The translations under genes and the position numbers were made by a program. From an uncultured Verrucomicrobia subdivision 3 bacterium (GTDB taxonomy: Bacteria; Verrucomicrobiota; Verrucomicrobiia; Limisphaerales; UBA11358): DNA of 64,000 nt. The number at the start of each line of letters is the position of its first letter. Position 1 is the first letter of the stretch. This document shows positions 22,429-22,830 of this stretch, piece after piece. The notes beneath the pieces were generated by a model, which had not been told where the DNA came from, searched no databases, and saw only the letters and a program-made list of their open reading frames with translations. The stretch lies in assembly GCA_903835255.1 (NCBI GenBank), contig CAILMI010000055.1:75244-139243 (forward strand), in the 5' to 3' direction.

Positions 22429-22830
22429 TCAGGGGAAAAAACTTTGCATTTGGGAAGCGCGGCTGATTTTCATCAGCAGGCCCGCATCGGCGGCGGGGAA
22501 TTGGAAATCAGCCAGTTGCTTTTTATGGATCCACTGGAGTGCGGCGCAGCCCAGCGGTTGCGGCACTCCGGAAATCAGTTGGCAGAGGAAGAATTTCAGC
22601 TGCACGGAATGTTCCGGGTAGGTGTGGAGAACCTCCTCAAATAACTCGCCGACAGCGATGGTCACCCCGAGCTCCTCCTGGATTTCGCGGACGATGCATT
22701 GCTCAAAGGTTTCCCCCGCCTCCCGTTTTCCTCCGGGAAACTCTCAGAGACCGCCCAGATGGACATCCGCGCGCCGCTGCGCGATGAGCAGTTTTCCGCC
22801 GTGAAAAATGAGCGCGGCCGAAACCTCCAT
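22429..22830 (-). pseudogene. mutT: mutT-type NUDIX hydrolase (8-oxo-dGTP diphosphatase-like) interrupted by one in-frame TGA at codon 29
   Basis: Hand translation from the ATG at 22830 gives [76 protein letters not shown]...CAALQWIHKKQL. The NUDIX box GX5EX7REUXEEXGU is perfect. The TGA (22744..22746) occupies the position of the conserved Trp in GLWEFPGGK. The frame is otherwise open to the stop at 22429. Confidence 0.75.

Follow-up and report, generated by a model that had tools for sequence, protein, structure and literature searches.

An uncultured freshwater bacterium of the Verrucomicrobiia carries, in a gene for a putative 8-oxo-dGTP diphosphatase (mutT), an in-frame TGA at a codon that specifies tryptophan in its sister strains, which raises the question whether this triplet is a true premature stop, a leaky or reassigned codon, or an error of sequencing or assembly. 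We examined the whole 64,000-nt stretch of DNA on which the gene lies (hereafter the window) together with sister contigs and public protein and metagenome collections. The host is a Limisphaerales-like species of the Verrucomicrobiia known only from metagenomes. At a probability of roughly 0.8, the TGA represents a genuine, recent nonsense mutation in the mutT of one clonal freshwater Verrucomicrobiia population, produced by a single G:C>A:T transition that converted TGG to TGA.

The MutT-type NUDIX frame occupies positions 22429..22830 of the minus strand and, read from the ATG at 22830, translates into 134 codons (133 codons and a terminal TGA) with one internal stop at codon 29. This premature TGA (22744..22746, minus strand) stands in the context CTC TGA GAG and differs from the TGG of the sister strains by a third-position G:C>A:T change at plus-strand base 22744. 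An intact NUDIX box (22663..22731, minus strand) was located with the regular expression GX5EX7REUXEEXGU in the six-frame translation and by Pfam alignment; translation, motif search and Pfam together bear out the initial annotation, which had described a single in-frame TGA in a MutT-type frame with an undamaged box. Its numbering of the stop as codon 29 holds for the ATG at 22830, but a conserved in-frame ATG at 22878 opens an alternative frame of 22429..22878, in which the same stop is codon 45. The intervening positions 22831..22878 (minus strand) encode a candidate N-terminal extension of 16 codons, MADTTPAPLLSSSLPR. The upstream ATG and its open frame are kept in all clades of the species, as is the ATG at 22830, and gene calls are divided accordingly: part of the species cluster is called from 22878 as a 149-aa protein, and the other intact same-species orthologues are 133 aa long. 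The N-termini of more distant relatives are unrelated to the extension.

Because the TGA precedes the NUDIX box, it interrupts the frame of the catalytic domain, and the box remains untranslated unless the UGA is read through. Gene callers report a 78-aa, GTG-started fragment in the TGA lineage (22429..22665, minus strand), which is without the NUDIX box, matches NUDIX_4 weakly and probably has no function as a protein. We also considered re-initiation downstream of the stop and rejected it: sequence and translation contain no in-frame ATG, GTG or TTG between the premature stop and the GTG at 22665, and with no start codon between the stop and the NUDIX box re-initiation is unable to rescue the enzyme.

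With Trp restored at the stop, the protein matches NUDIX_4 (PF14815) with 86.3 bits and NUDIX (PF00293) with 63.9 bits, both above the cutoffs, and by box and domain it is a member of the NUDIX hydrolase superfamily. The same restored protein exceeds the cutoff of TIGR00586 ('mutt') with 108 versus 97.9 bits, and stays below those of PRK10776 (94.4 versus 148) and of PRK08999 (116 versus 245). The best PDB sequence match is 3ees, a Bdellovibrio 'probable pyrophosphohydrolase', and the nearest solved relatives are 3ees, 4v14, 7syc and 1mut; judged by its sequence, the gene falls in the small MutT/NudG/RppH-like NUDIX_4 group, and 8-oxo-dGTP is its putative substrate. It thus shares fold family, NUDIX box and size (133-149 aa) with the MutT/8-oxo-dGTP diphosphatase family (TIGR00586; E. 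coli MutT 1mut, 4v14), but is stopped before the catalytic motif and falls short of the cutoffs of the equivalog models for E. coli-type MutT. In E. coli-type MutT the residue that corresponds to the Trp of the window lineage is Leu, so that this Trp is a trait of the lineage rather than a universal requirement. Apart from this gene, NUDIX similarity in the 64-kb window is limited to the C-terminal domain of a MutY-like gene (62704..63837), which, as had been stated before, is intact (HhH-GPD and NUDIX_4 domains).

The genetic code of the organism is the standard one. TGA terminates 26 of 39 tiled high-GC3 open reading frames and is the commonest true stop in the window, and gene ends and lengths agree with independent calls in sister contigs, so that the earlier exclusion of a global recoding stands and a table 4-like code with UGA as Trp does not apply. 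The gene also lacks the marks of a bacterial selenoprotein: homologues have W, Y or F at the aligned column and never Cys or Sec, no tRNA gene (tRNA-Sec included) was detected in the window, no Rfam family (SECIS included) matched in 21900..23300, and a 91-nt segment covering the stop and the sequence 3' of it folds no more stably than shuffled sequences (z = 0.01), giving no sign of a stimulatory or SECIS-like structure. Programmed stop-codon read-through is contradicted on two counts, namely conservation, as the TGA occurs in one near-invariant clone and in none of its relatives, and 3' context and structure: the base following the internal TGA is G, as in 5 of 28 genuine TGA stops, and neither the fold nor Rfam points to a stimulatory element. 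Editing of the UGA in the mRNA by A-to-I deamination was considered and dropped: TadA needs the UACG context of the tRNA-Arg loop, which the site does not resemble.

Tryptophan prevails at this column among the relatives compared. It is present in all of the 14 closest database proteins and in 14 variants with an intact frame, which share a 90% cluster with the truncated window product and 89-97% identity with the window protein, and a scan of JGI metagenomes with a TGR pattern returned four contigs, all with TGG. The column is covered in 79 of 80 genome loci, with W in 74, Y in four, F in one and a stop in none. The nearest DNA relatives conserve the flanks and read TGG at the codon, and parsimony places the TGG->TGA change on the window branch. 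Since all relatives read W, Y or F, the TGA is derived and confined to one lineage; the orthologue comparison that had been proposed for sister genomes has thus returned TGG or Trp throughout. Candidate parallel stops in Treponema loci, suggested by tblastn matches starting at residue 29, were rejected, as local tblastn recovered W and no internal stop, the single stop seen in these loci being the normal gene end. The Trp-restored window allele had no exact match in a collection of 15 billion proteins, and the immediate TGG ancestor is therefore unsampled.

The TGA allele was recovered without a single difference over 450 nt in four contigs, which represent three or more samples and three types of assembly: ENA ERZ18643718 (SAMEA6872875), ERZ18643096 (SAMEA6872872), ERZ27313363 (MEGAHIT) and Logan ERR4194104. 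Exact-protein look-ups with the neighbouring NDK-like gene and the 78-aa fragment placed the truncated 78-aa call on at least 18 contigs in 25-27 index blocks. A sister strain from the same sequencing project (SAMEA6872890) has TGG in an identical context of ±18 nt, and this speaks against a systematic error tied to the context. Two Logan runs with the TGA lineage could be placed, both from Lake Lomtjärnan, Sweden (PMC10244341), and the label 'BUCK21-1' fits the stratified-lake dataset of Buck et al. (PMC8121793), a tie that is made by label and not by individual sample accession. Because the placed samples share one lake, the 'independent' samples represent repeat sampling of one population rather than independent origins, and TGA is probably the consensus allele in repeated samples of a single lake population. 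This clone is nearly invariant, with four credible SNPs in ~250 kb of contig sequence.

The remainder of the gene is intact. Lineage-specific changes in mutT amount to three (the stop, a Leu>Gln replacement and one synonymous change), compared with ~3.3 expected for its length, and neither a frameshift nor a second stop was found in the mutT of the TGA lineage. The Leu>Gln replacement (CTG>CAG, 22601, minus strand) is the sole other lineage-specific amino-acid change, at a position that varies (H/R/L) among more distant relatives. One near-invariant carrier clone and an otherwise intact gene agree with the initial proposal of a very recent nonsense mutation. A scan for further in-frame stops based on GC3 was discarded, as in a window of 62% GC it returned dozens of off-frame matches and failed to pick up the mutT site; it was replaced by a comparison of gene lengths with sister contigs, according to which mutT is the only gene in the surrounding ~20 kb to differ.

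The coincidence of the stop with a Trp codon had been emphasized initially and is unremarkable. In the TGG-restored gene, 45 single-base routes lead to a stop codon, among them 15 by G:C>A:T, four of which fall at the two Trp codons. As the gene is without a CGA codon, G:C>A:T changes can create TGA only at these two codons, and a TGA made by transition in this gene has to fall on Trp. G:C>A:T is also the dominant class on the window branch (57-60% of changes), and a premature TGA on a Trp codon is the expected outcome.

Loss of MutT in E. coli raises A:T>C:G mutations more than 100-fold (PMC3556519), and the initial annotation had pointed to the classical A:T>C:G mutator genotype and to a comparison of mutation spectra between close strains. 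We built a 20-kb multi-strain alignment from sister contigs with intact mutT, in which synteny is perfectly conserved and which resolves three clades ~3% apart, the TGA clade being clonal. By parsimony, A:T>C:G changes account for 7/116 on the window branch versus 16/157 and 14/235 on sister branches. For strict tips the values are 2/83 for the window and 4/85 for the pooled tips with intact mutT, with G:C>A:T at 50/83 and 54/85, respectively, and no substitution class differs significantly between the window tip and the pooled intact-mutT tips. On the short window-specific branch available for window positions 1-12.4 kb, two of 16 changes are A:T>C:G. Ratios of nonsynonymous to synonymous changes (N/S) are 22/70 on the window branch and 37/104 and 29/162 on the sister branches, and selection on the window branch is not relaxed. 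The branch leading to the TGA clone thus lacks the A:T>C:G excess of a mutT-null mutator lineage, and the proposed genotype finds no support in its spectrum. Given the >100-fold effect in E. coli and the normal spectrum here, the lineage can have been an effective MutT-null mutator for a very small part of the branch at most, and it follows from the missing excess that the allele is either very young or its loss phenotypically mild.

Two further properties of these alignments concern the species as a whole. Divergence of the window from its sisters rises abruptly at ~11-12.4 kb, from 0.3-0.9% (loci L108-L115) in positions 1-12430 to 2.6-3.1% in 12431-32833, and the single sister locus L108 shifts from 0.5% before this boundary to 2.7% after it, a pattern that resembles a mosaic formed by homologous recombination between clades of the same species living side by side. 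Furthermore, all tips in window positions 12300-32900 and in sister loci L090-L098 exhibit ~60% G:C>A:T changes, with or without an intact mutT, in a genome of 62% GC. Recent mutations are therefore strongly AT-biased, and another force (selection or biased gene conversion) must keep the GC content high.

Variation inside the clone was assessed by comparing the ~250 kb of contig sequence to the window, using samples SAMEA6872870, -71, -72, -73 and -75, two Logan runs and several MEGAHIT assemblies, some of which may re-use the same samples; the coverage of the MEGAHIT contigs is unknown for part of the variants. The four credible SNPs, all of which post-date the stop, are G>C at 6253, C>A at 23578, A>C at 33070 (all outgroups A) and A>C at 41776, where the outgroups read G, G, G and A and the A>C direction is probable. 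Every one of them is a transversion, and A:T>C:G accounts for at most two; the divergence between clades, by comparison, is dominated by transitions. In Fisher tests against the intact-mutT tips, A:T>C:G at 2/4 versus 4/85 gives a nominal p = 0.02, the clean A>C at 33070 alone (1/4) gives p = 0.21, and transversions at 4/4 versus 24/85 give a nominal p = 0.008. The A:T>C:G share is a hint from four SNPs, too few to interpret.

All remaining differences between clone contigs were rejected as SNPs, as they are found either no more than ~55 nt from the end of a contig or in a scaffold gap that contains Ns. Apparent disruptions of a Caroten_synth gene (316/234 aa), RNase HII (320/298 aa) and an M50 peptidase (473/513 aa) reflect differing gene calls on DNA that is the same, and a length difference in an FAA_hydrolase gene (269/278 aa) is due to an N-gap in one scaffold. 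This gap corresponds to 48325-48340 of the window, where scaffold_11 of ERZ18643718 (loci L117/L124/L128) contains an N-containing 27-nt insertion with clustered mismatches and the FAA_hydrolase is called with 278 aa and no Pfam match, compared with 269 aa; it is a scaffolding artefact of the ERZ18643718 assembly and not of the window. At ~33321, one clone-level contig (L106/L122, ERZ27313363 k141_358116; also ERZ1426582) departs from the gene order of the window just beyond the SMC gene, where MreB-like genes take the place of the gene for a 795-aa coiled-coil protein; the contig is either chimeric or reflects a structural variant within the population. At 44118, a 1-nt insertion in one MEGAHIT contig (locus L120), probably an assembly indel, merges the overlapping PhoH-like and YbeY genes, which are then called as one protein of 510 aa.

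The mutT gene is the last of a co-oriented run consisting of a TPR protein gene, a UDP-glucose 6-dehydrogenase gene (ugd) and mutT itself, and for this reason no polar effect of the stop on other genes would be expected. The ugd gene (22900..24198, minus strand) carries the N-terminal, central and C-terminal Pfam UDPG_MGDP_dh domains and ends 21 nt upstream of the ATG at 22878, and this synteny is kept in all sister contigs. In one of these, from the SAMEA6872890 sister strain (locus L092, 8295-9931), the gene calls for the ugd, which here lies beside an intact mutT, consist of a 198-aa fragment and an antisense open reading frame, so that this contig may have its own ugd disruption or a misassembly. 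Convergent with mutT lies an NDK-like gene (21135-22307, plus strand) that is unusually long (390 aa), contains three matched NDK stretches and holds its position beside mutT throughout the clades; that genes for two nucleotide-pool enzymes are neighbours may be more than coincidence. Between the two genes, an 11-bp GC-rich hairpin (22327..22355) followed by a T-run on the plus strand is likely the terminator common to both. Outside the window, ~4-10 kb past its end (locus L127, 1-3073), LuxC/LuxE-like acyl-reductase genes and a gene for an Fe/Mn superoxide dismutase were identified, the latter suggesting that the organism meets oxygen.

From these observations we propose the following scenario. 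A spontaneous G:C>A:T transition would have created the UGA in the terminal gene of the run, and release factor 2 would end translation after 28 or 44 residues, ahead of the catalytic motif, leaving a null or near-null allele whose loss of function is deduced from the truncation. Occasional decoding of the UGA by near-cognate tRNA-Trp might still yield wild-type protein, as unprogrammed leakage only. Drift or hitch-hiking may then have carried the allele to a high frequency within a single lake clone. Its loss could be tolerated because the allele is very young, because a redundant NUDIX enzyme is encoded elsewhere in the genome, or because little 8-oxo-dGTP forms in oxygen-poor stratified lake water. 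In E. coli, anaerobic conditions remove nearly all of the mutT mutator effect (PMC3556519), and the stratified-lake dataset targets lakes with anoxic hypolimnia (PMC8121793), although the superoxide dismutase gene past the window end points to contact with oxygen.

Two other readings accept the TGA as real and differ in what becomes of the enzyme. The clone could be an active natural mutator, a true MutT null that is already gaining A:T>C:G changes too recently for the longer branch to record them. The bias of the post-stop SNPs towards transversions, with A:T>C:G among them, points in this direction, but it involves four SNPs, loses its nominal significance for A:T>C:G when the unambiguous A>C alone is counted, and draws in part on MEGAHIT contigs of unknown coverage, while two further candidates lie ≤55 nt from a contig end and the others plainly stem from contig ends or N-gaps. 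The spectra of branch and tips show nothing unusual, the short branch included, and the effect, which nearly disappears in anaerobic E. coli, may be blunted in lakes with anoxic hypolimnia. We consider an ongoing mutator unlikely. Alternatively, the stop might be leaky to an extent that is of use to the cell, with low-rate decoding by near-cognate tRNA-Trp(CCA) resulting in an attenuated gene and a near-normal mutation rate instead of a null. As the stop replaced a Trp codon, UGA decoding by tRNA-Trp would regenerate the wild-type protein, and background read-through of UGA by the endogenous tRNA-Trp has been reported with an E. coli reporter, at a level that tRNA-Trp variants can raise (PMC13092985). 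The fully intact frame past the stop, NUDIX box included, and the absence of a MutT-null spectrum on the branch are compatible with such leakage. An intact downstream frame is, however, equally expected of a very young null allele, no other lineage conserves the TGA, and its carriers are nearly without diversity, leaving no sign of selective maintenance; stimulatory structure, Rfam elements and a special +4 base are likewise missing at the site. The allele resembles known leaky UGA alleles read by tRNA-Trp in that decoding would restore the native residue, but differs from the Hirsh-type and 4-bp-anticodon-stem tRNA-Trp cases in that no sign of an altered tRNA-Trp, a stimulatory context or stop conservation came to light, the window containing no tRNA gene. 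A useful leak therefore appears unlikely as well, about as much as the mutator.

The other two readings deny either the stop or its function as one. All data derive from short-read metagenome assemblies, in which a true TGG might have been misread, and an error of sequencing or assembly was among the explanations first put forward. Nevertheless, at least three BioSamples agree on the base across metaSPAdes-style scaffolds, a MEGAHIT contig and a Logan assembly, and the same-project sister strains retain TGG in the identical context, making such an error very unlikely. Programmed recoding, by selenocysteine insertion or by reassignment of UGA to Trp, has a precedent within the phylum in one endosymbiont lineage, Ca. 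Pinguicoccus supinus, which uses UGA as Trp (PMC13092985). In the present organism it is extremely improbable, as TGA is the majority true stop, the column never contains Cys or Sec, no SECIS-like fold or Rfam match accompanies the site, and the downstream sequence does not differ from that of TGG alleles. The recent nonsense mutation remains the preferred reading, and the allele is another nonsense-inactivated mutT, neither a new coding phenomenon nor an artefact.

Like the mutT-null mutators of E. coli, this allele is a simple point mutation that inactivates a putative 8-oxo-dGTP sanitizer; in contrast to them, it resides in a wild, uncultured lake population and leaves no trace of the expected spectrum on its branch, and the oxygen regime of the lake may blunt the phenotype. 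It represents an ordinary strain-level pseudogene that merits a pseudogene flag in the annotation. In population-genetic terms, the TGA tags one clone of a species whose clades, at least three in number and ~3% apart, co-exist in boreal lakes, and it could serve as a modest marker. Should A:T>C:G-biased single-nucleotide variants be borne out within the clone, it would constitute a rare natural MutT-deficient lineage beyond laboratory evolution and clinical isolates, with which one could ask whether anoxic water columns make 8-oxo-dGTP sanitation dispensable. If the clone is indeed at the onset of a mutator state, the four post-stop SNPs could be the first trace of its signature, and the population would offer a natural system in which to watch an oxidative-nucleotide mutator begin, including its dependence on oxygen stratification.
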